This document shows positions 1,965 through 19,586 of a stretch of DNA of 19,821 bases, in pieces. A program made the translations under genes and the position numbers. The stretch spans positions 1 through 19,821 of the forward strand of contig JBHIAT010000057.1 of NCBI GenBank assembly GCA_046758705.1, given 5' to 3'. Below the pieces are notes generated by a model. The model made no database searches. It was given only the letters and a program-made list of their open reading frames with translations, and was not told where the DNA came from. This DNA comes from Candidatus Bipolaricaulia bacterium. GTDB lineage: Bacteria; Bipolaricaulota; Bipolaricaulia; JBHIAT01. Position 1 is the stretch's first letter, and each line of letters begins with the position of its first letter.

Positions 1965-2801
1965 TTAGCGATCCTGGGCAGGTTGAATCTCGCCTGGCAC
2001 ACCCGTTATCCGGGTCAGTGGCGTGCCGCTGCCCCCACGATGGCAAGCGATAATCTCGGCGATGATGCTGACCGCGATCTCTTCAGGGGTGATGGCACCT
2101 AAGTCCAGACCGGCGGGCGTGTGGAGTCGTTCCAACTGTTCTGAGCTCGCACCGCGGTCCTGCAACCGCTTCCAGATGAGTTTCGCGCGCTTAGCGCTGG
2201 CGACCAACGCCACATAACGCACATCGGCGTTCAGCGCCTTTTCCACCGCCAGGTGATCGGTCGCTTGATGGGCAGCGACCACCATGTAGGTGTTCTGGTC
2301 AAGCTCCAGTGCGCTAAAATCTGGATCCTCAGTGATCAAGTGACAGGAAGCAGGGAATGACTCGGGCTTGGCTCGGGGATCGTCTACCGTGATGGCAAAC
2401 CCCAACAATTCGCCCAGGTGGGCTAAGCTCTCTACAATCCGTCCATGGCCGAGCAACACCAATTGAGATGGCTTCAATTGCGGCTCCACGTATACGCGCA
2501 TCGTTCCACCACAGGGCATACCGGCCCCCAGCACCTCGTCATCGAGATCCACCTCCACGATCCGAGTTTGTCCGTCTCGGATACTGGCGACAGCGGCTTG
2601 CGAGACCATAGACTCAGCGCAGCCGCCACCGACCCAACCGTGCAAGTTTTGGCCGTTGGCGTCGAAGATGGCCTTTGCGCCAGGCTTGGCCGAGGCCGAC
2701 CCCCGTATTTCAACTACGGTCGCCAACGCGCAGGGGACACCTTGCTGCTGTAACCGTTGTAACACATCAATCCACTTTGTGTCCATCACTTTACTTGGCA
2801 T
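1965..2801 (-). CDS. xdhC: XdhC/CoxI-family molybdenum hydroxylase maturation factor
   Basis: ALATVVEIRGSASAKPGAKA, GWVGGGCAE, GMPCGGTMRVYVEP, LHTPAGLDLGAITPEEIAVSIIAEI. Start placed at ATG 2801 (TAATG overlap with the upstream stop); ATG 2786 is an alternative. Confidence 0.92.
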   Translation of the reverse strand: MPSKVMDTKWIDVLQRLQQQGVPCALATVVEIRGSASAKPGAKAIFDANGQNLHGWVGGGCAESMVSQAAVASIRDGQTRIVEVDLDDEVLGAGMPCGGTMRVYVEPQLKPSQLVLLGHGRIVESLAHLGELLGFAITVDDPRAKPESFPASCHLITEDPDFSALELDQNTYMVVAAHQATDHLAVEKALNADVRYVALVASAKRAKLIWKRLQDRGASSEQLERLHTPAGLDLGAITPEEIAVSIIAEIIACHRGGSGTPLTRITGVPGEIQPAQDR

Positions 2802-3313
2802 TACCCATCGCGAAGCCGTCGTGCGGCATCCTGAACTGCGGTGATGATTGGCTGATAGCCTGTGCAGCGACATAGATTCCCTGAAAGCGCCTCACGAATC
2901 TCCGCCTCACTCGGGTCAGGATTTCGCTCCAGGAAGTCCAACGCGGTCAGCAAGAAACCCGGCGTGCAAAAGCCGCACTGTAGAGCGAAGTGCTCCCAAA
3001 ACGCTTGCTGTAGCGGATGCAATTGTTCACCTTGAGCCAGATCCTCTACGGTGCGCACACGGTGGCCATCCACTTGCACCGCATACGTCAAGCACGAACG
3101 CACCGGTTGGTCGTCCAGCAGTATGGTGCATGCCCCGCACACACCGTGCTCACAGCCCAAGTGGGTGCCGGTTAGGCCCAACTCTCCGCGGAGGAAGTCG
3201 GCCAATGTCAAGCGCGGCTCCACCGCGCGGCGATATTCCGTGTCGTTGACCGTCACACGGATCGTTCTCGGCTCTATGGCGGTTGCTTCAGGCTCAGACT
3301 CAGGTTGAGCCAT
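2801..3313 (-). CDS. Mo-hydroxylase small subunit, two [2Fe-2S] clusters (CoxS/CutS-like)
   Basis: CEHGVCGAC...SC and QCGFCTPG...NLCRCTGY motifs. ATG 3313 follows GGAGGT. Confidence 0.95.
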
Positions 3314-4193
3314 CGGTTCCACCTCCGTTCACGCGTGCGGCGGCGATCGCCAGCGCCCGACCCACAAGCACCGTGGCCAGATGGCGGCGGTAATCCACCG
3401 AGGCATGGAGGTCTCCCTCAGGATCGATCTCCTCGCCGGCGTGGTTTGCCGCCGCTTCGAATAGTGCTTCATCGGGGGGGCTTCCGTTTAGCAGGGCTTC
3501 AGCGTTGTAGGCACGCACCGGCGTCGGGCCAACGCCGATGAGCGCCAGGCGTGCATCGGTACAGATTCCGGCTTCATCGAGCGTCAACCGCGCGGCCACT
3601 CCCGCCAACGCAAAGTCGCCGTGCCGTCGACTCAGCTCGACAAACGCCCACCCCGACCTCTCGGGCCACGGGGGCAGTCGAACTTCAACCAGCAACTCGT
3701 CGGGCTCGAGGCTGGTGGTCAGGTAAGTCAGGAAGAAATCTTCCGGACTCAGCACGCGCAGTCCTTCCCTAGCACGTTGCACCACCAGTTCGGCTTCCAC
3801 AGCAGCCACCAGCGCAGGCCATTCCGCCGCAGGGTCCGCATGGACCAGACTGCCGCCGACCGTCCCTCGGTTGCGGATCGCTCGATGTCCAATCAATGGG
3901 ATCGTCTCAACCACCAAGGGTTGGCGTTCCTGAAGCGTGGGGTCGTCTTCCAACGTGCTCTGGCGCGTCAGTGCGCCTAAGACCAGCCAACCATTCTGTT
4001 CTCGTTGGTAGTCCAGCGCTTCGATACGATTGAGATCGATGATGACACCCGGGGTTGCCATGCGCATATTCAACAATGGGCCCAGACTTTGTCCCCCGGC
4101 GAGGAGTTTGGCATCGTCCCCGTACTGGTTGAGAAGATCGAGCGCTTCTTCCACACTTCGGGGATCAAAGTAGGCAAATGGCGCCGGCTTCAT
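3300..4193 (-). CDS. Mo-hydroxylase medium FAD-binding subunit (CoxM/CutM-like)
   Basis: MKPAPFAY, LAGGQSL, IRNRGTVGGSLVHADPAAE, RRHGDFALAG; 297 aa. Confidence 0.95.
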   Translation of the reverse strand: MKPAPFAYFDPRSVEEALDLLNQYGDDAKLLAGGQSLGPLLNMRMATPGVIIDLNRIEALDYQREQNGWLVLGALTRQSTLEDDPTLQERQPLVVETIPLIGHRAIRNRGTVGGSLVHADPAAEWPALVAAVEAELVVQRAREGLRVLSPEDFFLTYLTTSLEPDELLVEVRLPPWPERSGWAFVELSRRHGDFALAGVAARLTLDEAGICTDARLALIGVGPTPVRAYNAEALLNGSPPDEALFEAAANHAGEEIDPEGDLHASVDYRRHLATVLVGRALAIAAARVNGGGTDGST

Positions 4194-4669
4194 TGGCGCT
4201 CCTCACTTTCCTTTTCCCGTTCATGTGGCTCGGCCAGCTCGTGATCCAGTGTTTTGAAGAACTGTCCCACCAGAAACTTGGCCACACCGCTCATGATGCG
4301 CTGACCCACGCCGGCGATCTTACCGCCCACCTCGGCGTGTCCCTGATAAACCAGCCGGGTGGACGCCTCGCCAGGTTCCAGATCGAGTTGCCCGTGGGCG
4401 TGCACGAAACCGTTGGCTCCTTCGCCGTTGATGTCGAGTATCAGGTGTTGAGGGGGAGCCATCTCGGTCATACGGACTTGTCCCGCAAAGCGGCCTTTAA
4501 CGGCGGCTACGCCGATCTCAAGTACAGCCTGATAGACTCCTTCTTCCACAAGTTCCAATTGCTTGCAGCCGGGTATACAGCGCTGCAGCACGGTCGGATC
4601 AGTCAGCGCTTCCCACACGCGCTCAGGTGTAGCGTTGAGGCGTTGCTCACCGTTTAGGGTTAAGTCCAT
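4190..4669 (-). CDS. coxG: CoxG-family (SRPBCC) accessory protein, soluble domain only
   Basis: VWEALTDPTVLQRCIPGC, VGGKIAGVGQRIM, FFKTL. ATGA overlap with the FAD subunit gene. Confidence 0.88.
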   Translation of the reverse strand: MDLTLNGEQRLNATPERVWEALTDPTVLQRCIPGCKQLELVEEGVYQAVLEIGVAAVKGRFAGQVRMTEMAPPQHLILDINGEGANGFVHAHGQLDLEPGEASTRLVYQGHAEVGGKIAGVGQRIMSGVAKFLVGQFFKTLDHELAEPHEREKESEERQ

Positions 4670-4698
4670 ACCCCCACCCCCATTCTTCCTCGACAGGG

Positions 4699-5889
4699 TT
4701 AGACGACACCCGGTTGCTGCAATCTTGCGATCTCTTCCGGCGTATAGCCTAGCTCACCCAGGATCTCTTCCGTGTGTTGTCCCAACAGCGGAGGCGCATG
4801 GTAGATGCCGACCTCCGATTGCGAGAACCTTAGGGGAGGGTTTGGCAGTGACACCGACTCAAGCGTCGGGTGAGCCACCTGATGAAGCAGGCTGCGCACC
4901 CGGGCTTGGGGTGTATTCAGGGCGGTAGCGAGATCGTTCACCGGGGCCACCGGGACGTCGTGAGTTTGCAGGCACTCGATCCAATCCGTTGTGGGACGGC
5001 TCTGGAACAGCGGCTCCAGGATCTCCCCCACCAGCGATGAACGATGCGTCACCCGGTTTGCATTGGTAGCAAAACGCGGGTCTGTGGCCAGGTCTTCCCG
5101 CTCGATTGCCCGGCAGAAACGGGTCCAGATCGCTTCACTGGCCACCGCCACCACGACGTGCCCGTCTTGGGTCTCAAACGCCTGGTAAGGCACAATGGTG
5201 GGATGTTGGGAACCGAGCTTCGTTGGGCTCTGCCCACTGACCAGGTAATACTGCGCCATATAGCACAGTGAAGCCAGTGCAACATCATACATCGCGATCT
5301 CCAGGTACTGGCCGTGCCCATCGCGCGCCCGCGCCCAGAGTGCCGCTAAGATCCCCTGCACCGCGTAATGCGCGGCAAGTAGATCCAAGATGGCCACTCC
5401 AATGCGTACCGGGGCCCCATCCGGCTCACCCGTGATGCTCATCCAGCCGCTCTCCGCCTGCAAAATCAGGTCATAAGCAGGTTTGTGAGCAGCCGGTCCC
5501 GAATTGCCGTAACCTGTGATAGAACAGTGCACGAGATTGGAATTCATCTCCCGTAGAGATTCCTTGGAGAGTTCCAACCGTGCTAGCGAACCCGCACGGA
5601 AATTTTCTATCAAAATATCGCTTTTTTCAACCAATTGAGTGAAGATCTCCCGGCCCTGTGGATCCCTAAGGTTCAGCGTCAGGCCCCGCTTGTTGCGGTT
5701 GATGCTGAGATAGTAGGCACTTTGGTCTCCCTGATATGGCGGCCCCCAGCCGCGTGTCTGATCCCCTACGCCGGGTTGCTCCACCTTCACGACATCTGCC
5801 CCGAGATCACCCAGCATCATGGCTGCATAGGGTCCTGCCAACACGCGTGACGCATCCAATACGCGAACACCTTCCAGAGGTCTGTTCAT
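4699..5889 (-). CDS. Class III CoA-transferase (CaiB/BaiF/Frc family)
   Basis: PLEGVRVLDASRVLAGP, LGADVVKVE, NRNKRG, ENFRAG, catalytic Asp in AYDLILQAESG, PPLLGQHT. Start at ATG 5889 (ATGA overlap, AGGAGG upstream). Confidence 0.95.
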   Translation of the reverse strand: MNRPLEGVRVLDASRVLAGPYAAMMLGDLGADVVKVEQPGVGDQTRGWGPPYQGDQSAYYLSINRNKRGLTLNLRDPQGREIFTQLVEKSDILIENFRAGSLARLELSKESLREMNSNLVHCSITGYGNSGPAAHKPAYDLILQAESGWMSITGEPDGAPVRIGVAILDLLAAHYAVQGILAALWARARDGHGQYLEIAMYDVALASLCYMAQYYLVSGQSPTKLGSQHPTIVPYQAFETQDGHVVVAVASEAIWTRFCRAIEREDLATDPRFATNANRVTHRSSLVGEILEPLFQSRPTTDWIECLQTHDVPVAPVNDLATALNTPQARVRSLLHQVAHPTLESVSLPNPPLRFSQSEVGIYHAPPLLGQHTEEILGELGYTPEEIARLQQPGVV

Positions 5890-8117
5890 CCTTCCTCCTC
5901 GTCCACCTGGAGCCAGCGCCACACACGTTCCGGAGTCAACGGCAACCGATCGACTCGTCGCCCGGCGGGTCCCAAGGCGTCAGCCACGGCATTGGCCAAT
6001 GCCGCACCCATGCCTGCGATGCCACACTCGCCAGCTCCCTTGACCCCTAGCGGATTCAGCGGTGAAGGAGAACGTTCCAGACGCTGGAGCGTTACCGGCG
6101 GCAGCTCAGCGGCGGTGGGGAGCAGATAGTCCATGAACGTGCCGCTGATCAGTTGACCGGTGGTGTCATAGACCAGTTCCTCTAGCAGCGCCCCCCCCAG
6201 CCCCTGTGCAACCCCTCCCTGGATCTGGCCAGTGACCATCTGAGGGTTGATCACATTCCCCACATCGTAAACGACCCAAACGTGCGTGGGGGTCACTTCT
6301 CCAGTGCGTGTATCCATCTCCACTTGGGCCACGACCACACCGTGGGAATAAGTCATCCGTTCGGTGTGGAAGTAGCAGGTGGACTCCAAGCTGGGTTCCT
6401 CACCCGGGGCGCAGTCGTGGGGTCCGGCTCGGGCGGCCAGACGCAGCAGCTTGTCGCGCACCTGTTGAGCTGCCTGATATACAGCGTTGCCGGCCAGCAC
6501 GGTCGTGCGACTGGCGAAGCTACCCACGCTGTAAGGGATCAAATCGGTGTCCCCGTGTTGTACACTGATCTCCTCGGGGGGGACCCCCAACACCTGGGCA
6601 GCGATCTGGGCCAGTACAGTCTCCAGCCCTTGACCGACACTGGATGCGCCGGTACTGACGACCACATGACCGCTGGGATCTATCGCTACCCGCGCCCCTT
6701 CAAATGGGCCCAGGCCGGTCTTCTCCACGAAGCAAGCGAGCCCCAAACCGATCCGGCGAACTCCACCTTTCCGCTCCCGTTGCTGGTGCACTTGATAATC
6801 GCATAAATTCAGGGCTTCGCGCAACGCATAGGGATAATCCCCGCTATCGTAGACGATCTCCTCCCCCAAAGAATGCGTGCCCGGTCGGTAGGGCAACTCT
6901 TCAGGCAGGAGCAGATTCTTCATGCGAAGCTCGGCTGGGTCCAACCCCAGCTCGCCGGCGGCCAAGTCCAGCAGCCGCTCACGCGCGGCATTGGTCTCAA
7001 AGCGTCCTGGGGCACGATAGGTCCCTGTGGGAGTCTTATTGGTGAGCACGCACCGCACGTCACCGCGGTAGTTGGGCAGGCGATAAGGGCCGGGAAACAT
7101 CCCTGCGCTCAGCTCGGGCACGATTACGCCATGGGTGCGGATGTAGGCTCCCATGTCGTTGACCAGACGCAACCGAGCGCCCAGCAGCGTGCCGTCACGC
7201 CGCAGCGCCAGCTCCATGTGGTAAACCTGTTGACGTGAATGATTGCAGGCGACCAGGTGCTCCAGGCGGTCCTCGATCCATTTGATCGGTCGACCTAAGC
7301 GTAGCGCAGCAAATGGAATCAGAAAATCTTCAGGGTAGAACTCCCCACGCACCCCAAAGCTCCCGCCCACGTCCGGTTCGATGAACTGGATGCGGTGCTC
7401 AGGCAACCTCAACATGCGGGCCAAGATCCCTCGGTTGAAGTGGGGAACCTTGGTAGGCCCCCACACACGCAACCGGTCCCGGCTTTCGTCATAGAGGGCG
7501 ACTAACCCGCGGGTCTCCAGCGGCATGCCGGTGTGTCGACCTGTGGCAAAGCGTGCCTTGACGACGTGATCCGCTTCAGCAAAGGCCTGTTCCACGTCTC
7601 CGCGTTCCATCACGAAGTGCGAGGCCACGTTGTCCAGCGCAGCCTCGTGTAACGCAGCCGCCGGGGGGGCGGCCTCAGGGTTGACGACAGCCGGCAGGGG
7701 TTCATACTCGACGTGTATGGTCTCTAAGGCATCCTCGGCCCGATAGCGGCTCTCTGCGACCACCAGTGCCACCGGTTCGCCTACATAGCGGACGCGGTTA
7801 TGCGCTAACGGATACTGCAGAAACGGCTTAAGTGAACCGTAGGGGTTGAGGCGCACCGGGATCGGTTGTGCCCACTCCGATATATCCTCAAAAGCAAAGG
7901 CGGCCACCACGCCCGACAACCGCCGCGTTTCACTTAGATCGATGTCCGTAATACGAGCGTGGGCATGTGGACTGCGCACCACGGTCGCGTGGAGCAGGTG
8001 GGGCAGTTGTACGTCATCGACGAAACATCCCTGTCCTTTAATCAGGCGAGGGTCCTCAAGCCGTTTGATCGCCGCGCCGATGACCGCATTGGATCGCACA
8101 CGATCACTGGTGTTCAA
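5886..8117 (-). CDS. Xanthine-oxidase-family molybdopterin large subunit (L1, TYRAPGR loop)
   Basis: RLEDPRLIKGQG, RSPHAHA, DVGGSFGVRG, TYRAPGR, GQGLET, GSFASR, QIQGGVAQGLG, KGAGECG. TTG start with GGAGG overlaps the upstream stop (TTGA). Confidence 0.93.
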   Translation of the reverse strand: MNTSDRVRSNAVIGAAIKRLEDPRLIKGQGCFVDDVQLPHLLHATVVRSPHAHARITDIDLSETRRLSGVVAAFAFEDISEWAQPIPVRLNPYGSLKPFLQYPLAHNRVRYVGEPVALVVAESRYRAEDALETIHVEYEPLPAVVNPEAAPPAAALHEAALDNVASHFVMERGDVEQAFAEADHVVKARFATGRHTGMPLETRGLVALYDESRDRLRVWGPTKVPHFNRGILARMLRLPEHRIQFIEPDVGGSFGVRGEFYPEDFLIPFAALRLGRPIKWIEDRLEHLVACNHSRQQVYHMELALRRDGTLLGARLRLVNDMGAYIRTHGVIVPELSAGMFPGPYRLPNYRGDVRCVLTNKTPTGTYRAPGRFETNAARERLLDLAAGELGLDPAELRMKNLLLPEELPYRPGTHSLGEEIVYDSGDYPYALREALNLCDYQVHQQRERKGGVRRIGLGLACFVEKTGLGPFEGARVAIDPSGHVVVSTGASSVGQGLETVLAQIAAQVLGVPPEEISVQHGDTDLIPYSVGSFASRTTVLAGNAVYQAAQQVRDKLLRLAARAGPHDCAPGEEPSLESTCYFHTERMTYSHGVVVAQVEMDTRTGEVTPTHVWVVYDVGNVINPQMVTGQIQGGVAQGLGGALLEELVYDTTGQLISGTFMDYLLPTAAELPPVTLQRLERSPSPLNPLGVKGAGECGIAGMGAALANAVADALGPAGRRVDRLPLTPERVWRWLQVDEEEG

Positions 8118-10486
8118 GAAATGCCCTCCGGTTTCAGCTGCAATACGCGCTCAGGGGTAAGCGGCAATCGGATCTGAGGGATATTGGACTGCAGCGCATC
8201 GAACACAGCGTTGGTGATCGCTGCGGGCGCACCGATGGTGCCACTTTCCCCCACGCCCTTGAGCCCCCCCTCGGTCCAAGGGGAGGGCGTTTCCATATGT
8301 ACCATCTTGATCTCGGGTATGTCAAAGGTTCCCGGCGCCAGGTAATCCAGGAGTGTGGTGGTCAGCAGTTGTCCCTGATTGTCGTAGGCCAGCTCTTCTA
8401 ACAGGGCGATGCCAATCCCCTGTGCTACGCCGCCGCGGATTTGGCCTTCGACAACTTGGGGATTGATCATTGGACCACAGTCTTCAGCCACCAGATAGCG
8501 GCGCACCGCCACTTGGCCGGTGTTGGGGTCCACCTCGACGAGCGCCAGATGGACTGCCGCTGAGCAAGTGGCAGGTGGTGGATCATAGGCACAGTGGATC
8601 TCCAGACCAGGCTCACAGCCCGGCGGCAACTCTTGAAATGGTGTGTAAGCAATCTGGGCCAGCTCGCGCAGTGACAGACGTTGAGCCGGTTGACTTTGGA
8701 GTGTGACCGCGCCATCGGCGTAGTTGGCTTGTGTCGGCTCGACGTTCCAATAGGCTGCCGCGAGTTGGATGAGCTTGTCGCGCAGCTTGCTGGCTGCTTT
8801 GAGAAGCGCGCCTCCGCCGCTTACCATGCTGCGACTCGCAAACGTGCCTGAACCGTAGGGACAGCTGACGGTGTCCCCTAAAAGGATCCGTATCTGCTCC
8901 AAAGGCACACCCATCGCGTTTGCCAGCAATTGTGCCAGTGTGGTGAATTGACCCTGACCTTGCGACGGCGTGCTCACAAACGCCTCGAGATTGCCCTCGG
9001 GCCCCACACGCAACGTGGCCGCGTCGAAGGCCGGTACCTGCACCATGCCGCGTTTGCGATAAGTCTTACGTCCCATACCGGTGGACTCTACAAAACACGA
9101 TATGCCAATGCCGAGCATGCGACCTTGGGCGCGTGCTCGGCTCTGCTCGTCGCACCACGCATCGTAGTTCGCCTGTTCAAGCGCCAACTGGAGTAGCGCT
9201 GGATAGTCTCCACTGTCATAGGTGGCGCCCGAAGGGCTGGGGAATGGGAACTCTTCAGGGTGCGCCATATTCTTCAGGCGCAGTTTGGCGGGATCGATAT
9301 CGAGTTCACGCGCGAGTCGGTCCATCAGACCCTCCATCACCAGCGGTCCCAGTACGAAGCCAACTCCGCGATAGGCGCCAACCGGGCACTTGTTGGAGGC
9401 CACCGCATAGCCGTCATAGGCAAAGTACGGAAACCGGTAAGGTCCGGGCAGCCCGGTGGCGATGGTGTATGGTTCTAAGGCGCATGTGATCGGGAACGCA
9501 GAGTAAGCTCCCACATCGCAGATCGCCTTAGCCCGCAGGCCGATGAGCGTGCCGTCGCCGTGGGCGGCTAGCTCAGCCTCTACCCGATCATCGCGAGCGT
9601 GGATGCTCGCTTGCAAATTTTCCATGCGATCCTGTGTCCACTTGACCGGCCGGTCCAGGTGACGGGTGAGGTGAGCGACCACCAACTCCTCCGGGAAGGC
9701 GTGCATCTTAATTCCAAAGCCACCGCCTACGTCTGGGGCGACGACCCGCAGTCGGTTTTCTGGGTGATCGAGACATTGACTGAGTAGATCGCGCAGCAGG
9801 TGAGGGATCTGGGTCGAGGACCACACCACCAGCTCATCGGTTTCTCGATGATAGCTGGCCAGCACGCCGCAGTTCTCGATAGCCAGCCCGGTGACACGAG
9901 GATGTTGGAACATGGCGCGCACGTGCACCGCGGCGGCGTCGAAGTCATCTTCCCCCGCCTCTGACCCGATGTGCACGTGGAAGAGTGTGTTGTTGGACAG
10001 CTCTTCGTGTACGAGCGGTGACCCTGCTGCCATCGCATCTCTGGCCCGAGCCACCACCGGCAAAGGTTCATACTCAACCCGCACCCGAGCGGCGGCATCT
10101 TCTGCACGGTAGCGGTCCACAGCCACCACAGCTGCCACGGCTTCGCCCACGTAGCGCACCTTGTCCCAGGCCAGCGGATACCAGTCTATCATCTGGTACT
10201 CCGGCGCGTTTAACAGGGCGCGGATCGGTTTGATGAGGGGACGCAACTGTGCACCGGTGATCACAGACAGCACACCGGGCTGGCGAGTCGCTTCCTCTAT
10301 GTCTATCTCGCCCAAGCGAGCGTGCGCGTACGGGCTGCGTACGAAGGCGACGTACACGGTGTTCGGTGGGGTCAGGTCATCCAAATAGCGTCCCTGGCCG
10401 CGCAACAGAGCCAGGTGTTCAACACATGAGACGGTTTGTTCCGGACTTTCGAGGAGACCTATCTTGTTAGCGCTATTCACCTGCAC
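8114..10486 (-). CDS. Xanthine-oxidase-family molybdopterin large subunit (L2, AYRGVG loop)
   Basis: RSPYAHA, STQIPH, DVGGGFGIK, AYRGVG, QGQG, GTFASRS, QIRGGVAQGIG, KGVGESG. GTG start at 10486 or 10480 (GGAGGT spacing favours 10480). Confidence 0.94.
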   Translation of the reverse strand: MQVNSANKIGLLESPEQTVSCVEHLALLRGQGRYLDDLTPPNTVYVAFVRSPYAHARLGEIDIEEATRQPGVLSVITGAQLRPLIKPIRALLNAPEYQMIDWYPLAWDKVRYVGEAVAAVVAVDRYRAEDAAARVRVEYEPLPVVARARDAMAAGSPLVHEELSNNTLFHVHIGSEAGEDDFDAAAVHVRAMFQHPRVTGLAIENCGVLASYHRETDELVVWSSTQIPHLLRDLLSQCLDHPENRLRVVAPDVGGGFGIKMHAFPEELVVAHLTRHLDRPVKWTQDRMENLQASIHARDDRVEAELAAHGDGTLIGLRAKAICDVGAYSAFPITCALEPYTIATGLPGPYRFPYFAYDGYAVASNKCPVGAYRGVGFVLGPLVMEGLMDRLARELDIDPAKLRLKNMAHPEEFPFPSPSGATYDSGDYPALLQLALEQANYDAWCDEQSRARAQGRMLGIGISCFVESTGMGRKTYRKRGMVQVPAFDAATLRVGPEGNLEAFVSTPSQGQGQFTTLAQLLANAMGVPLEQIRILLGDTVSCPYGSGTFASRSMVSGGGALLKAASKLRDKLIQLAAAYWNVEPTQANYADGAVTLQSQPAQRLSLRELAQIAYTPFQELPPGCEPGLEIHCAYDPPPATCSAAVHLALVEVDPNTGQVAVRRYLVAEDCGPMINPQVVEGQIRGGVAQGIGIALLEELAYDNQGQLLTTTLLDYLAPGTFDIPEIKMVHMETPSPWTEGGLKGVGESGTIGAPAAITNAVFDALQSNIPQIRLPLTPERVLQLKPEGIS

Positions 10487-10555
10487 CGACCTCCAGGTAA
10501 GGCAACAATTCAGCCTCCTTGACTTGATCGGTCTGGGCCTGAAAAAAGTAGCAAA

Positions 10556-11224
10556 TCACGCTTTAAGGACGGCCACTGCCCGGGTCAGACCCCCGTCTCC
10601 TCCGGCAATCTTCACCGGAAGGGCGATCAGGTCGAACTCGTCAGCCCCGATTTGATCCAGGTTCACTAGATTCTCCACCAGAAGCACCGACGCCCCCAGG
10701 AGAATTTGATGGTTTGGGTAAGGCGTCTCAGCGTCGACTGCGAAGTCCACGCCGAGCATCACGAGGCCCGTCTCTGCCAGCCACCGGGACGTCTCCTCGG
10801 CCAAGCAGGGATTGTTCGTGTAAAAGTCGGCGTGTTCCCACATCTCCTGGGCCCAACCGGAGTACAGGATCAGCGCCTTTCCGGCCAACTCCTCAGGGCT
10901 TGGGACCCCACAGATCTCCAGGTCGGCCATCGTGATCTCGTTCCGAGGTCGGACTCGCTCCCGGATGTCGCACAGATAGGCCCGAGTAAAGAACGTCGAC
11001 ACCGGAATTTGATCGATGGTCCGACCGTTCCTGACAAAGTGGTAGGGAGCGTCCATGTGGGTTCCCAGGTGAACGGGGGTGGTCATCAGCGTGCTGGAGA
11101 ATCCGTCTTTCTCGTGCGTTCGCAGAGGGGTTAGCTGAAGTTCCGGGTTTCCTGGGACGGGCGTGACCTGGGGACTATGGGTTAGGCTCAAATCCACGTA
11201 TCTCCTGTCGTTTGAATTTGTCAA
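10556..11224 (-). CDS. Cyclase-family metal-dependent hydrolase (kynurenine formamidase/isatin hydrolase-like)
   Basis: HLGTHMDAPYH (HxGTHxDxPxH), GVD, VENLVNL, PVKIAGGDGGLTRAVA. TTG start overlaps the stop of the cupin remnant. Confidence 0.92.
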   Translation of the reverse strand: MTNSNDRRYVDLSLTHSPQVTPVPGNPELQLTPLRTHEKDGFSSTLMTTPVHLGTHMDAPYHFVRNGRTIDQIPVSTFFTRAYLCDIRERVRPRNEITMADLEICGVPSPEELAGKALILYSGWAQEMWEHADFYTNNPCLAEETSRWLAETGLVMLGVDFAVDAETPYPNHQILLGASVLLVENLVNLDQIGADEFDLIALPVKIAGGDGGLTRAVAVLKA

Positions 11225-11449
11225 TGCTTATCACTTTCCCTTTCCCAGCTCAATCCACATGTCTGCAGGAGATCGAAGTCCGGGGGGGCAGGTCCTCCCA
11301 CGCTAACCAATGTGGAATCCGGGTTGGCCCTGACTGCGTGCCGAACCCCGGTGGGCGCCCACACCGGGCCACACAATCAACCGCGCCTGTTTCGAAATGA
11401 TCGGGATGGGCACACCATCCACATCGCAGTGAAATACTTTGATGCCCAT
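11221..11449 (-). pseudogene. Cupin-like gene with an internal deletion and frameshift
   Basis: ATG 11449 reads MGIKVFHCDVDGVPIPIISKQARLIVWPGVGAH. A different frame from ~11355 reads PTGVRHAVRANPDSTLVSVGGPAPPDFDLLQTCGLSWERESDKH*. This contains cupin motif 2 (PxGxxH); its stop at 11221-11223 is coupled to the next start. Cupin motif 1 is missing. Confidence 0.7.
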
Positions 11450-11453
11450 AAAG

Positions 11454-11828
11454 TTATCCGTCTAAGAAAGCGACCACCCGACAAATGCTGGCCTCTCCGC
11501 CCTCAAATCTCCACGGGAACGCCCCGATCTTGCAGCGGCGGTTCAACACCCGATCGATATCGCCTCCGATATTTTCTACGTGGACGATGCCCTTGGGGAA
11601 CGGAACCCGATGCATGACGAACAGGCCGTCCTCAGGGAATTGCTCCGCGATCCTCTTCCCTGTTTTGCGCTCGTATTCCCGGGTGATGTCCGGCCGTCTG
11701 TCTCGGATGGAGGTGTTCATCTTGCAAAAGTAGCGAACTTCATCTTCCTCCGCCTGGGCCTGGCCGCGCCCACGAATCAGGGGAAGCATCTCCAGATCGT
11801 CGTGAATGGAGAGCACTTTCACCTTCAC
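11454..11828 (-). pseudogene. Chimeric remnant: probable cupin N-terminus fused in frame to the C-terminal part of a second cyclase-family hydrolase
   Basis: The C-terminal MH..FPKGIVHVENIGGDID...IGAFPWRFEGGEASICRVVAF is a cyclase-family end. HxGTHxD and the GxD segment are absent. The first ~26 aa (LPLIRGRGQAQA) resemble the start of the neighbouring cupin (IPIISKQAR). Confidence 0.7.
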
Positions 11829-11872
11829 CTAAAGCCACCCTCTCTATCAGCAAGCTTGACCCGTCTACGGAA

Positions 11873-12676
11873 CTAGAGCTGGACATCCATGAGCGCCTTG
11901 CGCTGGGCGCCGTCAATGTTGATCATCGTGCCGTTAATAAAGTGAGCCCGGTCCGAGGCCAGAAACGTCGCCAGGTCGGCTACCTCTTCAGGGGTACAGA
12001 TCCGCCCCAGCGGGATGCTCGATTTAGCCAGGCGATCCGCCTGTTCCACGCTGATGCCCTTGTCGCGTGCCATGGCTTTAACCAGGCCATCCCAACGCTC
12101 GGTGTGAACCGGACCGGGATTGATTGCCACAAAGGTGATGTTCTCCTTGCCGTACTGCTCCGCCAATGAGAGCGTCAGGTTCAGGTCTGCGGCGTTGGCT
12201 GCTCCGGCGGTAATCTCCCAATAGGCGTACTTACTGCCGTCGTTGCCCACAATGTTGACCACCCGTCCCTTGCCTTGGTTGCGCATGTGGGGTAAGACCG
12301 CTTTGCAGCAGCGTACATAGCCCATAAACTTGAGCTGCAACGCCTGGGCCCAATCCTCTTCGGTGAGGGTTTCCAGCACGCCGCCGGGCGCGCTGCCCGC
12401 ATTGTTGACCAGGATATCGATGCACCCGAAATGATCGATAACCCCGGTTACCAAGCGATCCACATCCTCCATGCGGGTGAGATCAGCTACGAATGGAGCC
12501 ACTTCACTGCCGGTTTCCCGTTGGATCCCGTCGCTGGTCTGTTTGAGCAGCGCCTCTCCCCGCGCACAGATAGCGACTTTGCAGCCCTCACGTGCCAACG
12601 CCGTCGCGACCGCTTGGCCGATCCCCTTACTGCCGCCGGTGACCAGTGCCACCTTCCCTTGCAAACCCAAGTCCAT
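11873..12676 (-). CDS. Atypical short-chain dehydrogenase/reductase lacking YxxxK
   Basis: TGGSKGIG, ICAR, NNAG, INPG, ASDRAHFINGTMINIDG. The catalytic region reads NIVGNDG...WEITAGAANAA. AAGGAGGT RBS. Confidence 0.92.
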   Translation of the reverse strand: MDLGLQGKVALVTGGSKGIGQAVATALAREGCKVAICARGEALLKQTSDGIQRETGSEVAPFVADLTRMEDVDRLVTGVIDHFGCIDILVNNAGSAPGGVLETLTEEDWAQALQLKFMGYVRCCKAVLPHMRNQGKGRVVNIVGNDGSKYAYWEITAGAANAADLNLTLSLAEQYGKENITFVAINPGPVHTERWDGLVKAMARDKGISVEQADRLAKSSIPLGRICTPEEVADLATFLASDRAHFINGTMINIDGAQRKALMDVQL

Positions 12677-13517
12677 GGGATACCTCCTTCTCGCTTCTCA
12701 TTTCGATGGTGTACAGGTCGGTGCGTCGATCGACAAACAGATCGTTCGGTCCCACACGTTTATCGTCCGCTTGGCGGGGGTCGATCTCGGTGACGAGCAC
12801 CGCCCTTTCATCGGGACCTGCAGGCCCGGCAACCGCTTGCCCGGTTGGTCCGGCAATCAGACTGTTCCCCAGGTAGCGCACCCGTTTCTCGGTTCCCACC
12901 CGATTCGCGCACAGCACAAACAGACGGTTGGCGTATGCGTGGCCCAATGCCAGATGAGCGGCTGCACACAGACCATATTGGTCCCAGGGTTGAGACTTGC
13001 CCGTGTCCGTCCAGGTGACGGGCACACACAGCAACTGCACCTGATCCAGCGCCAGCAGACGCACCGCCTCGACAAAGCGCAGATCGTAGCAGATTAGCAC
13101 GCCCAGTCGTGCCCCTTCGACATCGATCGAGTGGAACCGACCGTTGCCGGCGGTCAGGCGGCGTCCTTCCCAGCCGAACAGATGCGGTTTGCGATAGCGA
13201 GCCAGCACTCCCTGGGGGCCAAGCACCAGCGCCGTGTTGTAGCAGTGGTCCCCGGCTCGCTCCAGCAGACCGGCCACCATGTAGAGATCGAGCGCTTCGG
13301 CCTCACGGAGCCAACGCTGCACCGACTCCCCCGCGGGAATCTCCTCAGCCCAGCGTTCCAGCGGTTCGTTCCCCAACTGATAGGAACTGGTGCACAGTTC
13401 GGGCAGCACGATCAGCTGCGCCCCCCGCTCCGCCGCTTCACGGATCGCGTTGATCGTCTCGGCAACGTTCTGAGCCCGATTGGGTCCGGGAGCCAGCTGA
13501 GCCACCGCCACTTTCAT
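12627..13517 (-). CDS. Nitrilase-superfamily carbon-nitrogen hydrolase (amidase/carbamoylase type)
   Basis: Glu-Lys-Cys triad in LPEL, YRKPHL, ICYDLRF. Also ANRVG..E...YLGNS and DRRTDLY. AGGAG RBS. Confidence 0.93.
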   Translation of the reverse strand: MKVAVAQLAPGPNRAQNVAETINAIREAAERGAQLIVLPELCTSSYQLGNEPLERWAEEIPAGESVQRWLREAEALDLYMVAGLLERAGDHCYNTALVLGPQGVLARYRKPHLFGWEGRRLTAGNGRFHSIDVEGARLGVLICYDLRFVEAVRLLALDQVQLLCVPVTWTDTGKSQPWDQYGLCAAAHLALGHAYANRLFVLCANRVGTEKRVRYLGNSLIAGPTGQAVAGPAGPDERAVLVTEIDPRQADDKRVGPNDLFVDRRTDLYTIEMRSEKEVSHGLGFAREGGTGHRRQ

Positions 13518-13552
13518 TTGCCCACTCCTGAATTTTTCAATTTTAACACCGG

Positions 13553-14515
13553 TTACAGCAACAGACGACCCGACTCGACCACGACCTTCCCATCGAGTTC
13601 CACCATCGGGTTGAGCAACAGACCATCCAGGTGGATCTCGCTTTTGACGGTCCCACCGATGACGTGATTATCTCCAAGAGCGATGTGCACAGATCCCTCG
13701 AGCTTCTTATCTTCGGCCATGTTTCCGATAAGGCGGGCGTTTGGGTTGGTCCCGATGGCAAACTCGGCGATATTGGTCGCGTGGTCATCGGCCGCGTCCA
13801 CCAGACGTTGCAACTGTCCTGCGGAGCTCCCTCCTTCGATGGAGACGACCCGACCGGTCACAACACGCATACGGATCGGCTCGTCGAGCAAACCCAAACC
13901 GTCCATGGAGTTCTCGATTACCAGTGTGCCCTCCGTTGAACCCTCCACCGGGCTGATCGCCGTCTCGCCGTCAGGCATGGCCGCAAACGTGCCTGGACCT
14001 TTTACAATGCCGTCCAGTGCCTTTGCCTGACGGCCTGCCAGGCTCATCGCCAGCTCTGTGCCCTGGGGGGTGCGCAGGTTTACGTGGTCCGCGTCGTTGA
14101 GCCATTGGCGCAGTTGAGCACAGCGAGCCGCGATCTGTTGATAATCGGCGTTGATCGCCCCGTACAGCATAAGATCCTCGGTGACCCCGCGTAACACCAA
14201 CACGCGCCCGCCCGCGTTTAGCGCTCGCTGGGTGGCGTCGGTGTGGGTCATCGCATGGGTGACCACTTGAAACACCACATCGGCCTGCTCCATCGCGGCA
14301 GCAATGACTTCAGGAACCTCTCGTCCATGCTGAGCCCGTGGCGCCATGACCACCACCACCGGATCGGTGTCGAAGGTGGAGGCGACATCGGCGATCACCT
14401 CGGCCAGCATCAGCTTCTCGGTATCGGTGACCACGCACACCCGCTCGCCGGGCTGCAGCTGAACGTTATCTTGTGCCAATCGTCTGGCGACTCTAAACAG
14501 CTCTGGATTGTGCAC
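13553..14515 (-). CDS. Peptidase M29 (aminopeptidase T)/NicX-fold metalloprotein
   Basis: LQPGERVCVVTD, TPQGTEL, MPDGET, IAEFAIGTNP, VHIALGDN, IHLD. GTG start behind GGGAG. Confidence 0.85.
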   Translation of the reverse strand: MHNPELFRVARRLAQDNVQLQPGERVCVVTDTEKLMLAEVIADVASTFDTDPVVVVMAPRAQHGREVPEVIAAAMEQADVVFQVVTHAMTHTDATQRALNAGGRVLVLRGVTEDLMLYGAINADYQQIAARCAQLRQWLNDADHVNLRTPQGTELAMSLAGRQAKALDGIVKGPGTFAAMPDGETAISPVEGSTEGTLVIENSMDGLGLLDEPIRMRVVTGRVVSIEGGSSAGQLQRLVDAADDHATNIAEFAIGTNPNARLIGNMAEDKKLEGSVHIALGDNHVIGGTVKSEIHLDGLLLNPMVELDGKVVVESGRLLL

Positions 14516-14528
14516 GAACGTGACTCCC

Positions 14529-14547
14529 TATTTTGTAGTACAAAATA
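14529..14547. promoter_or_regulatory. Perfect palindromic operator-like site TATTTTGTA-G-TACAAAATA
   Basis: 9-bp inverted repeat with a 1-nt spacer. AT-rich in a GC-rich context. Lies directly upstream of the RBS of the first operon gene and overlaps the -10. Confidence 0.75.
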
Positions 14548-14573
14548 TATGAGCTAACGGAATTGGATGTCAA
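14544..14573 (-). promoter_or_regulatory. Sigma70-type promoter of the catabolic operon
   Basis: TTGACA (14573-14568), 18-nt spacer, TATATT (14549-14544). Confidence 0.65.
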
Positions 14574-18067: not shown

Positions 18068-18466
18068 TCACTTACACCCTTCAACCAGTTTGAAGTTGGG
18101 CCAGACCTCTAAGACAGTATCCCGCAAGAAATCTCGTTCGCAAAAGTCTGGATCGACGAGCTCTCCGTTCCATACCACGATATCCAGATCGATGGTTCGG
18201 GGACCGTACCGGTTCTCCGTGCGCACACGGCCCAGTTCCCCCTCCAGCTGGCTTAACCAATTTTTTAGGGATTCCCGTTCCATTGTCGTCTCGATCAGGA
18301 TGGTTCCGTTGACAAAGTGAGGTTGGTCCAGATAACCGATCGGCTCGGTTTCGACCAGACGAGATTCGGCCACAATACGATGCTGCTCCGCAATCTTTTC
18401 CTTGGCTTGTTTAATATGCGCTTCCGGTTGGATGTTAGACCCCATACTGATCACGACTCGGTTCAT
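18068..18466 (-). CDS. folK: 6-hydroxymethyl-7,8-dihydropterin pyrophosphokinase
   Basis: ISMGSNI, ETEPIG, QPHFVN, GPRTIDLDI. ATGA overlap with the upstream gene. Confidence 0.93.
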   Translation of the reverse strand: MNRVVISMGSNIQPEAHIKQAKEKIAEQHRIVAESRLVETEPIGYLDQPHFVNGTILIETTMERESLKNWLSQLEGELGRVRTENRYGPRTIDLDIVVWNGELVDPDFCERDFLRDTVLEVWPNFKLVEGCK

Positions 18467-18822
18467 GCTTCCCTCCCCCGCTCAGCCGAGGACTGGACCG
18501 AGACCGAGTCTGAAAACCGTAGCGCGTGCGGCTTATCGACCTCTACAGTCGCTTTTTTCACCCGACGGTCCTCCATCACGATCTGAAGCACGTGGTTGGA
18601 TAGCGCTTCGAGCAGGTAAAAATCTGACCCTTCCACTTCCTTAATAATTCGTTTCGTGATCGCTTTGTAGTTGACGGTCTCATCGATACTGTCCGTCTCA
18701 GCCGCCTTGCTCCCATCGAACTCGATCTTCACATTGATCACGACATCCTGTTTGTTCTCTCGCTCCCAATCGTTAATGCCAATGATCGTTCTCAATCTGA
18801 GATCCTTGATGCGGATGATCAT
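18463..18822 (-). CDS. Dihydroneopterin aldolase / dihydroneopterin triphosphate epimerase family (FolB/FolX)
   Basis: MIIRIKDLRLRTIIGINDWERENKQ, VNYKAITK, LLE, VDKPHALRFSDSVSV. Start at ATG 18822 (ATGA overlap). Confidence 0.9.
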   Translation of the reverse strand: MIIRIKDLRLRTIIGINDWERENKQDVVINVKIEFDGSKAAETDSIDETVNYKAITKRIIKEVEGSDFYLLEALSNHVLQIVMEDRRVKKATVEVDKPHALRFSDSVSVQSSAERGREA

Positions 18823-19556
18823 ATGAGATGCTCTCCTCCGTCTACAAAGATCCATTCTCCGGTGATAAAACGGTGCCCTACCAGGAAGGAGACGGCAGAA
18901 GCCACACTCTCTGGGTCTCCTTTTCGCTGAAGCGGAATGCGTTGGCTCATTTGATCGAGATAGGCTTTATCCTTGCCCGGTGGTGGCAGGATCAACCCGG
19001 GGCAGACACCGTTGACCCGGATATGCGGACCCAGTTCTTTGGCCGCCATTTTGGTGAATTCAAAGAGCGCCTTCTTGGTGAGCGTATAGACAAAGTATTC
19101 CGTGAAATTTTTCGTGATTTTCGTGTCGAGGATGTTAACAATTTGTCCCTCCTGGCCCTGGAGGTGGCGTGCAAAATCGCGTGACAGGAAGAACGGGGTT
19201 TTGAGGTTAATATTGAAGTGTCTGTCAAAGAGCTGCTCGTCGGTCTCCACCAACGGAGCCCGCTGGAAGATCGAAGCATTGTTAACGAGGAGATTGCAGT
19301 CGGGGAAAACGTCAAAGACTGCGGGAATCAGTGCAGCAACGTCCTTCATATCGTTAAAGTCGCTACGAAACAGGTGATATTCTCTCCCTACCTCCTCTAT
19401 CTTTCGTGCGAGAGCTTGCGCATCATCGCTGGAACCGCGGTAATGCAGGGCGATGTTATATCCGTTTTCGGCCAGAGTCAACGCGATCGCTCGACCGACC
19501 CGCTTCGCGGCTCCGGTCACGAGGGCTGTCCCTTTACCTTGAGCATCCATGGTCAT
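18819..19556 (-). CDS. Pteridine reductase (FolM/PTR1-like SDR)
   Basis: TGAAKRVG (Arg of TGxxxRxG), HYRGS, NNASIF, NILD, YTLTK. Clustered with fol genes. Start at 19556 or 19550. Confidence 0.88.
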   Translation of the reverse strand: MTMDAQGKGTALVTGAAKRVGRAIALTLAENGYNIALHYRGSSDDAQALARKIEEVGREYHLFRSDFNDMKDVAALIPAVFDVFPDCNLLVNNASIFQRAPLVETDEQLFDRHFNINLKTPFFLSRDFARHLQGQEGQIVNILDTKITKNFTEYFVYTLTKKALFEFTKMAAKELGPHIRVNGVCPGLILPPPGKDKAYLDQMSQRIPLQRKGDPESVASAVSFLVGHRFITGEWIFVDGGEHLI

Positions 19557-19586
19557 CTTCAAAGATGCCAGAATAGGGAGTGAATG

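Follow-up and report, generated by a model that had tools for sequence, protein, structure and literature searches.

The 19,821-nt stretch examined here (hereafter the window) is the entire 19.8-kb contig C57 (GenBank JBHIAT010000057.1) of a Candidatus Bipolaricaulia bacterium assembly (GCA_046758705.1) of 3.7 Mb in 319 contigs, 94% complete. All large genes in the window lie on the minus strand, and those between positions 14515 and 1965, assigned to families with Pfam and NCBIfam profiles, make up a putative catabolic operon. In order, it encodes an M29-like protein with the fold of NicX, a nitrilase, a short-chain dehydrogenase/reductase (SDR) and, after approximately 650 bp without a family match, a cyclase-family hydrolase, two large subunits of molybdenum (Mo) hydroxylases (L2 and L1), a CoA-transferase, CoxG, the medium (M) and small (S) hydroxylase subunits and XdhC (Table 1). 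An earlier note on this DNA had described 13 co-oriented genes or remnants with tight overlaps behind one promoter and operator; the genes, the remnants, the promoter-like site and the palindrome were all recovered where it had placed them. The tight packing is borne out by the coordinates and profile matches: L2 and L1 overlap in TTGA, CoxG and M in ATGA, and the longest open reading frames of nitrilase/SDR, L1/CoA-transferase, M/S and S/XdhC share 23-73 nt. As the note had also said, Pfam and NCBIfam searches of the window's proteins found no flavin monooxygenase, Rieske oxygenase or transporter families; isochorismatase and maleate-isomerase families were likewise absent from the window (Pfam).

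Table 1. Features of the putative operon, from its upstream end (positions in the window; aa, amino acids).
Feature	Position	Strand	Length	Basis or remark
Promoter-like site TTGACA-18-TATATT	14544-14573	-		11/12 matches
Perfect 9+9 palindrome TATTTTGTAcTACAAAATA (TATTTTGTA c TACAAAATA), candidate operator	14529-14547	.		between -10 hexamer and ribosome-binding site
M29-like/NicX-fold protein	13553-14515	-	320 aa	PF02073, E 3e-17
Nitrilase-superfamily amidase	12627-13517	-	296 aa	PF00795, E 2e-47
AerF/BacG-like SDR	11873-12676	-	267 aa	best PDB match 6jh7, E 3e-51
Truncated 'mini-cyclase' remnant, orf124	11454-11828	-		similarity to PF04199 protein of locus L115
Cupin_2 pseudogene	11230-11449	-		similarity to L115 cupin, PF07883
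Cyclase-family (KynB/isatin-hydrolase-like) metal hydrolase	10556-11224	-	222 aa	PF04199, E 2e-27
Mo-hydroxylase large subunit L2, Qor/NdhL-like	8114-10486	-	790 aa	three XO-family domains
Mo-hydroxylase large subunit L1, KdhL-like, 34-codon in-frame deletion	5886-8117	-	743 aa	XO-family domains
Family III CoA-transferase, SUGCT-like	4699-5922	-	407 aa	PF02515, E 1e-129
CoxG/SRPBCC protein	4190-4669	-	159 aa	PF06240, E 2e-28
FAD-binding medium subunit M	3300-4193	-	297 aa	PF00941 + PF03450
2x[2Fe-2S] small subunit S	2801-3322	-	173 aa (longest ORF)	PF01799 + PF00111
XdhC-family Mo-cofactor insertion chaperone	1965-2873	-	302 aa (longest ORF)	PF02625 + PF13478

Judged by synteny, this gene set is conserved, widespread across several phyla and uncharacterised. 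Of 8000 database candidates scored for the M29-like protein, 557 were relatives at E <=1e-10, the best of them 75% identical. A profile built from 19 M29-like relatives (alignment A1) led to 76 loci in contigs from one genome per species, the single M29-like protein used as query led to 37 loci in metagenome contigs, and a local tblastn search that used proteins of the window plus six neighbour proteins as queries found matches in 111 loci (numbered with the prefix L). An M29-like protein at least 50% identical to that of the window was present in 61 loci, 37 of which also carried an orthologue of the SDR. Of the remaining 24, the majority are short or break off at the gene, while L023, L026, L117 and probably L095, L110 and L116 have flanking sequence without the cluster. 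The 37 clusters contained the cyclase in 35 cases, a VOC-family gene in 36, the nitrilase in 26, at least one L gene in 29, M in 20, S in 20, CoxG in seven and XdhC in two within the flanks available, and a homologue of the CoA-transferase in none; these are counts of loci rather than of independent events (L012 is the same as L088, and L006, L091 and L092 are near-identical). Carriers were recorded in Chloroflexota (Caldilineaceae, Anaerolineales), Acidobacteriota/Terriglobia, Armatimonadota, Sysuimicrobiota and Bacillota (Scopulibacillus cellulosilyticus and two Brevibacillus). Cultured carriers are Brevibacillus massiliensis, Brevibacillus sp. B_LB10_24 and S. cellulosilyticus and, by protein matches, Aneurinibacillus and Alicyclobacillus. 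Among the 50 loci below 50% identity, mostly of haloarchaea and Desulfobacterota, the SDR was found in two and an L gene in three.

The usual gene order is M29-like, cyclase, VOC, (nitrilase), SDR, in some loci a Liv-type ABC transporter, L2, L1, (CoxG), M and S; Liv-type binding proteins are embedded in 8 of the 37 clusters, and L007 has a UbiD decarboxylase. The VOC gene of L004 (11638-12057) resembles methylmalonyl-CoA epimerase (TIGR03081, 93.5 bits, under the cut-off of 115). Every complete locus has two L genes with a single M and a single S, which supports the view that two different Mo-hydroxylase large subunits use one common pair of M and S. The earlier note had proposed an uncharacterised N-heterocycle catabolic operon built on two Mo hydroxylases, for which the conserved set with its two L genes per M/S pair speaks. 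The conserved co-occurrence without a characterised member that the note had suggested looking for was found, with the SDR and, in most of the 37 loci, its partners. The two outcomes it had named as damaging did not materialise: a conserved neighbourhood exists, and the nearest characterised pathway, that of plasmid pAO1, is 24-41% identical and without most of the partners. In the literature searched, no described pathway with this gene set was found.

The molybdenum hydroxylase genes carry the domains of the xanthine oxidase (XO) family, namely PF01315, PF02738 and PF20256 in L1 and L2, PF00941 and PF03450 in M, and PF01799 and PF00111 in S. A glutamate near the C-terminus of the large subunits, which we take to be the catalytic residue, is invariant in all 8 sequences of a second alignment (A2; KGAGECG in L1, KGVGESG in L2). 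The best match of L2 in the PDB was quinoline oxidoreductase Qor (1t3q, E 4e-176), and that of L1 was KdhL, the large subunit of 6-hydroxypseudooxynicotine dehydrogenase (7dqx, E 1e-176, in two stretches). When compared with the nicotine pathway of pAO1, L2 was 41.0% identical to NdhL (519 bits) versus 33.5% to KdhL, and L1 was 40.1% identical to KdhL (532 bits) versus 36.4% to NdhL; M was 42.5% identical to KdhM and S 56% to KdhS. Both large subunits missed every equivalog cut-off in NCBIfam. An identity as CoxL was rejected (TIGR02416, 566 and 477 bits versus a cut-off of 991; NF040766, 588 and 700 versus 950), and the loops AYRGVGF of L2 and TYRAPGR of L1 contain no cysteine, where CoxL presumably has the motif AYxCSFR. 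Xanthine dehydrogenase (XdhA/XdhB/PucD) was likewise rejected, with best scores of 411 bits versus 780 (NF043082) and 330 versus 784 (pucD). It is established for pAO1 that Ndh acts on a 3-substituted pyridine at C6, and Kdh at C2 (outlined in passages of PMC6214936). Because L2 pairs with NdhL and L1 with KdhL, the comparison suggests hydroxylation of a 3-substituted pyridine at C6 and then at C2.

The SDR is the best-conserved gene of the cluster (49-83% identity). It retains the TGGSKGIG motif and lacks the Ser/Tyr/Lys triad of classical SDRs. All 20 orthologues compared show GNDG at the position of the serine, as part of a motif GNDG..K....WE.T..A(A/V)NA, and (A/P/S/G)GAANAA where YxxxK would stand. 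The best PDB match is AerF (6jh7), well ahead of the next (E 3e-37), and AerF has the same asparagine in place of the lysine (active-site segment ...KSGVVNAALMNF in AerF and ...TAGAANAADLNL in the window SDR); BacG/YwfH (3u49) is also among the matches. AerF is a reductase of alkenal double bonds that depends on NADPH (so described in part of PMC13256417 and in the title of a reference in PMC10143770), and BacG, the reductase listed for the step from H2HPP-type to H4HPP-type intermediates, acts on a ring C=C during the synthesis of bacilysin (passages of PMC9147277). Both nearest structural relatives have lost the YxxxK lysine, and both reduce a C=C that is conjugated with a carbonyl within a six-membered ring (same passages of PMC13256417 and PMC9147277). 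They serve natural-product biosynthesis on carbocyclic prephenate derivatives, beside cupin isomerases, whereas the window setting is catabolic and heterocyclic. The loss of the triad and the closeness to AerF make the SDR a candidate NADPH-dependent C=C (ene) reductase, likely acting in a ring-reduction step between hydroxylation and hydrolysis, and its conservation, the highest in the cluster, gives C=C reduction a probably central place in the pathway. The earlier note was right to call this SDR atypical, but instead of a spare dehydrogenase it would be a reductase of the AerF/BacG type.

The M29-like protein had only one sequence match in the PDB, the dioxygenase NicX (7cn3), at approximately 20% identity. 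Its AlphaFold2 model (pLDDT 91) matched NicX best in Foldseek (TM 0.85, E 3e-28), followed by PepS, AmpS and AmpT, and the M29/NicX fold named in the earlier note is thereby confirmed, with the refinement that the putative metal ligands favour a hydrolase over a dioxygenase. From the 7cn3 alignment, the Fe(II) site of NicX is what we take to be a 2-His-1-carboxylate triad of His265, His318 and Asp320. The residues His105, His318 and Asp320 of NicX have their counterparts in H91, H295 and D297, while His265 is replaced by Glu251, and Glu184 and His277 stand opposite Phe194 and Leu300 of NicX; E184, E251, H277, H295 and D297 are invariant in the 19 sequences of alignment A1. The window protein therefore has the short M29-like fold of NicX without its 2-His-1-carboxylate site. 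M29 aminopeptidases presumably bind their dinuclear metal center through Glu, Glu, His, His and Asp. A profile alignment with PepS and AmpS matches E184 and E251 and covers only these first two of the five ligands, so that H277, H295 and D297 were assigned by spacing, in a protein some 90 residues shorter than AmpS, PepS and AmpT. Because His265 has become Glu and ligands of the aminopeptidase type appear to be kept, the protein is more probably a hydrolase than a NicX-type dioxygenase, and by these residues a probable dinuclear metallo-amidohydrolase.

The likeness to NicX nevertheless calls for an oxygen-dependent route of the maleamate type to be considered, in which the M29-like protein would cleave the ring as a NicX-like Fe(II) dioxygenase, its substrate being a di- or trihydroxypyridine that the Mo hydroxylases produce, for instance out of 3-hydroxypyridine. 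The cyclase would then be an N-formyl deformylase analogous to NicD, which presumably follows NicX in its own pathway, the nitrilase would be a maleamate amidase analogous to NicF, and the SDR and VOC proteins would process the unsaturated diacid. The fold match, the three retained NicX residues, the adjacency of the M29-like and cyclase genes in the usual order and the inclusion of true formamidases in the cyclase family all fit such a route. The ligand substitutions do not: Glu251 replaces a NicX ligand, and E184 and H277, opposite Phe and Leu, fit an M29 aminopeptidase site, with which PepS and AmpS align at E184 and E251. Conversion of nicotinate to 2,5-dihydroxypyridine would moreover be impossible for Mo hydroxylases without a monooxygenase, of which the window has none, and the highly conserved ene-reductase-type SDR would be left with no role. 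We consider this route unlikely.

The remaining enzymes fit hydrolytic ring opening and deamidation. The cyclase matches PF04199 with 96.8 bits (cut-off 23.1) and contains HLGTHMDAPYH, in agreement with what we take to be the family motif HxGTHxDxPxH; its PDB matches are kynurenine formamidases and isatin hydrolases, and we regard it as a candidate ring-opening amidohydrolase. It is not the arylformamidase KynB (TIGR03035, 72.6 bits versus a cut-off of 223), nor is it an orthologue of PKC from pAO1 (23.6% identity, E 7e-9). The nitrilase matches PF00795 with 162 bits over profile positions 1-250 of 256, and PELC, RKPHLF and ICYD, presumably the motifs of the Glu-Lys-Cys triad, were recognised by eye. 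Its best PDB matches are PH0642-type enzymes, mouse Nit2 and N-carbamoylputrescine amidase, and orthology to NIT of pAO1 was rejected (29.1% identity, E 1e-13). With identities of only 24% and 29%, PKC and NIT are precedents by family and not by orthology. The action of such cyclase and nitrilase enzymes on cyclic and linear amides, as the earlier note had it, has published precedent in PKC/NIT of pAO1 and HpoH/HpoI of Rhodococcus (passages of PMC6214936). The best NCBIfam model for the CoA-transferase is succinate-glutarate CoA-transferase (NF052585, 367.5 bits, under the cut-off of 750), and its best PDB match is 9br6, a succinate-hydroxymethylglutarate CoA-transferase (E 5e-100); this likeness to SUGCT and to the succinate-glutarate model points to a C5 diacid. 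The CoA-transferase is a window-specific addition and not part of the conserved pathway. The sequence of hydroxylation, hydrolytic opening, deamidation and CoA activation outlined in the earlier note thus agrees with the hydroxylase, cyclase and nitrilase genes, but it lacked the reduction step, and its last step belongs to no relative.

The principle of Mo hydroxylases and hydrolases acting together on N-heterocycles is already known, and parallels to four described systems are drawn here by logic rather than by orthology. In the nicotine pathway of Paenarthrobacter nicotinovorans pAO1, two XO-family hydroxylases act in turn on both carbons next to the pyridine nitrogen. One block of the plasmid reads kdhL, Dabb, cyclase, dhpH, SRPBCC, CN-hydrolase, MoxR, VWA and XdhC, with a cupin gene nearby, and has five families in common with the window; PKC and NIT were proposed to open a trihydroxypyridine and to deamidate 2-ketoglutaramate (as outlined in PMC6214936, in part). 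Unlike the window, pAO1 has its own M and S for each L, the C-C hydrolase DHPONH and the flavin monooxygenase DhpH, and the window, which has none of these, has one common M/S pair, the AerF-like SDR and the M29-like protein, to which the relatives add VOC. Degradation of 2-hydroxypyridine by Rhodococcus rhodochrous PY11 also employs a cyclase-family enzyme, HpoH, followed by a nitrilase-family omega-amidase, HpoI, a likeness taken from their description and not from sequence (passages of PMC6214936). It differs in having no Mo hydroxylases, M29-like protein or ene-reductase-type SDR. The upper pathway of this strain reportedly uses a multicomponent oxygenase.

A parallel for a reduction step is nicotinate degradation in Aspergillus nidulans (HxnS, HxnT, HxnW, HxnM, HxnN), where Mo hydroxylation, ring saturation by an alkene reductase, hydrolysis of a piperidine-dione by a cyclic imidase and finally an amidase follow one another, and where ring saturation before C-N hydrolysis was called unique among the nicotinate degraders studied (sections of PMC9304392). 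The families differ: the fungus relies on a reductase of the OYE type, an imidase resembling PuuE, an enzyme with the amidase signature and two flavin monooxygenases, in place of which a second Mo hydroxylase would stand in the window. In Bacillus niacini, nicotinate is attacked at C6 and then C2 by two separate Mo enzymes, and a cluster with a pair of Mo oxidoreductases and at least one Fe-S protein has been described; this candidate cluster differs in its nicF and nicE homologues and its TetR and IclR regulators (PMC4256190). No Neobacillus record was among the 76 loci retrieved with the M29-like profile from one genome per species.

Taking the families, motif states, synteny and pAO1 pairing together, we see about an even chance that a conserved operon, present in the window as a derived copy, degrades a pyridine-type N-heterocycle, most likely 3-substituted, such as nicotinate or nicotinamide, by hydroxylation, reduction and hydrolysis; from them we infer the following reactions, their order and a substrate. 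L2 with the common M and S would hydroxylate the first carbon next to the ring nitrogen (C6), and L1 with the same M and S would hydroxylate C2 to give a 2,6-dihydroxy (dioxo) ring. In the relatives, the VOC/methylmalonyl-CoA-epimerase-like protein, whose gene is missing from the window, may tautomerise or epimerise the intermediate. The SDR would then use NAD(P)H to reduce the remaining ring C=C to a glutarimide-type ring, which the cyclase and/or the M29-like metallohydrolase would open, with removal of a side-group amide or carboxyl. The nitrilase would deamidate the omega-amide to a C5 dicarboxylate and ammonia, and in the window alone the SUGCT-like CoA-transferase would activate the C5 diacid. 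XdhC and CoxG would serve the hydroxylases.

Our best guess for the substrate is nicotinate or nicotinamide, which the Ndh/Kdh pairing, carboxylate-type regulators (see below) and a nucleoside context favour. IU-type nucleoside hydrolases lie within 10 kb of 13 of the 37 clusters in approximately four lineages (marine Anaerolineales, L004, L016 and L115), with a ribokinase over its cut-off in L004 and PfkB kinases in the marine loci, and in several lineages the substrate is probably released from nucleosides. A fuller version of the proposal, in which NAD-derived pyridines freed from ribosides are hydroxylated twice, reduced and hydrolysed without any oxygenase, by L subunits swapping on one M/S pair, an SDR that saturates the ring despite the loss of its Tyr/Lys and an M29-fold amidohydrolase of a new kind, the hydrolytic sister of NicX, is tentative and in our view less likely than not; such a route would be widespread, with carriers among marine Chloroflexota, Acidobacteriota, Armatimonadota and Bacillota. 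In nitrilase-less marine Anaerolineales clusters (L005, L006, L009, L091-L093 and L118; 7 of 37), an isochorismatase-family gene, the family to which NicF presumably belongs, follows just after S on the opposite strand. Its PDB matches are ambiguous between isochorismatase and nicotinamidase, and it may replace the nitrilase as the amidase or act as a nicotinamidase.

The nucleoside hydrolases could also indicate that a purine or pyrimidine base is degraded. The L subunits would then give xanthine and urate or barbiturate-type products, the SDR would act like dihydropyrimidine dehydrogenase or YgfK, the cyclase and the M29-like protein would open the rings, and the nitrilase would remove N-carbamoyl groups. 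In L004, L012 and L016 the nucleoside hydrolases score best on uridine/pyrimidine models, and L004 has its ribokinase; TRZ/ATZ deaminase and M20 genes, with weaker matches to SsnA and YgeY, lie beside the marine clusters, although these neighbours are limited to that one lineage. The nitrilase shows similarity to N-carbamoylputrescine amidase as well as to a chain titled beta-ureidopropionase, and the logic of reducing before hydrolysing has been published for urate (bioRxiv 10.1101/2025.05.19.654654, in the part consulted). The large subunits, in contrast, group with Qor, Ndh, Kdh and CoxL and reach 313-411 bits versus xanthine dehydrogenase cut-offs of at least 780. Uracil has a single free carbon next to nitrogen, three hydrolases make a small number for a purine, the transferase gained by the window belongs to the C5-diacid type and is unexpected for C3 products, and FCD-type regulators suggest a carboxylate effector. 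On balance we think a purine or pyrimidine substrate improbable. The oxidative pyrimidine pathway with barbiturase was rejected, as uracil would offer one hydroxylation site only; no paper naming uracil dehydrogenase genes was found in the literature searched, part of it as excerpts. No canonical pucD scored over its cut-off in five carrier genomes, a result that says nothing on the substrate. Isonicotinate was also considered. Mycobacterium INA1 is said to degrade it with two Mo enzymes through citrazyl-CoA, reduction and hydrolysis, which fits the CoA-transferase; with this gene in none of the 37 relatives, it is a minor possibility only.

Several points weigh against the pyridine route preferred here. 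No member of the cluster family has been characterised, NdhL and KdhL are matched at an identity of only about 40%, and the best solved relative of L2 is a quinoline oxidoreductase. The nearest fold of the M29-like protein is a dioxygenase and its gene lies beside a formamidase-family gene, as the oxygen-dependent route would have it, and the uridine/pyrimidine scores of the nucleoside hydrolases and the resemblance of the nitrilase to N-carbamoyl amidases fit pyrimidine or purine bases. The low identities of the cyclase and the nitrilase to PKC and NIT belong here too, as does the fact that the C5-diacid clue comes from one window. The 37-locus counts overstate independence, because many of these loci are related to one another or recur as duplicates in the second of the two collections. 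Finally, the copy in the window may not work as described, because VOC is missing, L1 carries a deletion and pseudogenes are present.

By comparison with its relatives, the copy in the window has been rearranged, has partly decayed and represents a derived variant. The nitrilase lies between the M29-like gene and the SDR, the cyclase follows the SDR and the remnants, and the genome has just one VOC relative, on another contig and at 36% identity. The reading frame of the nitrilase extends 50 nt into the SDR gene (12627-12676) and is approximately 10-20 residues longer than the nitrilases of relatives, probably a by-product of the rearrangement that placed it beside the M29-like gene. A Pfam scan of 11225-11872 gave no family match, and the remnants in this region were identified only through homologues in the metagenome locus L115, which bear out the cupin and cyclase remnants listed in the earlier note. 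Window 11460-11750 (minus strand) corresponds, at 58% identity, to residues 71-149 of a PF04199 'mini-cyclase' of 150 aa (L115:4533-4985, E 4e-26), and orf124 weakly matches the C-terminal end of the intact cyclase in the window (E 2e-4). Window 11342-11449 (minus strand) matches residues 1-36 of a Cupin_2 gene (L115:5341-5739, E 1e-7) and 11230-11364 (minus strand) matches its residues 86-128 in a different frame (E 2e-8), leaving a cupin pseudogene without the middle part that holds the metal motif. In L115 these genes form a module of cupin, mini-cyclase, cupin and cupin at 4148-6797, approximately 5 kb upstream of its own GntR-M29 cluster, and among the loci examined the module is intact only there. 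The L115 module also has an NMT1-like binding protein, and its mini-cyclase is without the N-terminal metal motif region.

L1 lacks approximately 34 residues that are found in all three L1 relatives of alignment A2, the in-frame deletion lying at 6429|6430. Contigs of three sequencing runs (X1 and X2, possibly the source of the assembly, and X3 from the same study) match the deletion and the remnant region without difference, and a contig of a fourth run (X4), 90-95% alike, has 102 extra letters exactly at 6429|6430; the deletion is therefore real and strain-specific. In the remnant region the X4 relative has a 3-nt insertion and a 1-nt deletion (window 11458 and 11847), and X4 contigs with loose ends near 11721 and 11886 suggest that it may be differently arranged there. 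In 40 genomes from the same class, no M29-like protein exceeded 39% identity, and an origin by transfer is possible.

Whatever the ancestral pathway, the window copy could thus be a decaying remnant that is non-functional or re-purposed, an explanation compatible with the other readings. Loss of a gene that 36 of 37 relatives possess, with a paralogue only 36% identical, the cupin and mini-cyclase pseudogenes, a 34-codon deletion that the X4 contig does not share, the changed gene order and the nitrilase tail within the SDR gene are what decay would leave. Yet all 11 main genes are open, with motifs intact where checked, the L1 deletion keeps the frame, the promoter-like site and candidate operator are strong, and CoA-transferase and XdhC were gained rather than lost. 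Decay is accordingly a possibility that we take seriously, though we lean away from it.

The promoter and operator that the earlier note had placed before the operon exist as sequence features. TTGACA-18-TATATT is the sole 11/12 match among 6 promoter-like sites in 16.5 kb (3.8 expected), and its -35 hexamer shares letters with the stop codon of the Zn-dependent alcohol dehydrogenase (Zn-ADH) gene upstream. The palindrome has no second copy in the 3.7-Mb assembly at up to 3 mismatches and would fit what we take to be the GntR/FadR-type consensus t.GT...AC.a. Conservation of the operator across relatives was rejected, as 18 of 21 related loci have no perfect palindrome 5' of the M29-like gene and those of the other three are unlike the window's. 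GntR/FCD regulator genes occur in 9 of the 37 clusters, directly before the M29-like gene in L016, L022 and others, and FCD-type regulators would point to a carboxylate effector. Three GntR/FCD candidates elsewhere in the genome (33-37% identical to the L022 regulator) could not be linked to the operon, and a GntR-type repressor encoded elsewhere may bind the palindrome. The statement that the window holds no regulator is uncertain because of a 761-aa signalling protein upstream, with Zn-ribbon, class III nucleotide cyclase and AAA_16 domains (15725-18010, minus strand), which is a possible signalling link to the operon. In L018 and L103, a longer homologue of 1143 aa (36% identical) is encoded next to a Zn-ADH-like gene, at a distance of a few kb on the upstream side of the cluster.

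Beyond the earlier note, the present analysis adds the assignment of the SDR as a candidate ene-reductase, an examination of ligand residues in the M29-like protein, the pairing of L2 and L1 with Ndh and Kdh, the VOC gene, the finding that the CoA-transferase is not conserved and the recognition of a rearranged, partly decayed copy. Pyridine rings, from niacin, breakdown products of NAD, alkaloids and pollutants, are a common source of nitrogen and carbon; few bacterial routes for them are known, and most need oxygenases. If the proposal is true, a route of water-dependent hydroxylases, a reductase and hydrolases would explain ring recycling in low-oxygen sediments, vents and the deep sea, and it would be the first bacterial pyridine pathway with ring saturation by an SDR before imide hydrolysis, one that could run without O2. 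It would also provide roles for short M29-like proteins annotated as 'aminopeptidase', for AerF-like SDRs without the triad and for methylmalonyl-CoA-epimerase-like VOC proteins outside CoA metabolism, as well as a test case for two large subunits on one electron-transfer module. As cultured carriers exist, experiments are feasible.

Upstream of the operon on the same strand, the Zn-ADH gene and the signalling protein are followed by folK, a folB/folX-like gene and a pteridine-reductase-like SDR gene (18068-19562, minus strand; G+C 0.51-0.52 versus approximately 0.60), and pepF lies downstream of the operon. The FolB-family gene passes the cut-off for dihydroneopterin triphosphate 2'-epimerase (154.9 versus 152 bits). 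M29-like homologues of haloarchaea (L028-L072, 40-46% identical) often occur as two adjacent copies, and in L042, L044, L045 and L047 they lie near a CoA-transferase homologue (36-40%) without Mo hydroxylases. The Bipolaricaulia genome itself has a second, distant M29-like gene (31% identical) on contig C27 (G000:C27, locus L122, 9319-16334), adjoining genes for a class II aldolase, a Mo-hydroxylase large subunit (804 aa) and a Liv-type ABC transporter, with a luciferase-like monooxygenase and an IS110 transposase upstream. M29-like proteins thus accompany Mo hydroxylases twice in the same genome.

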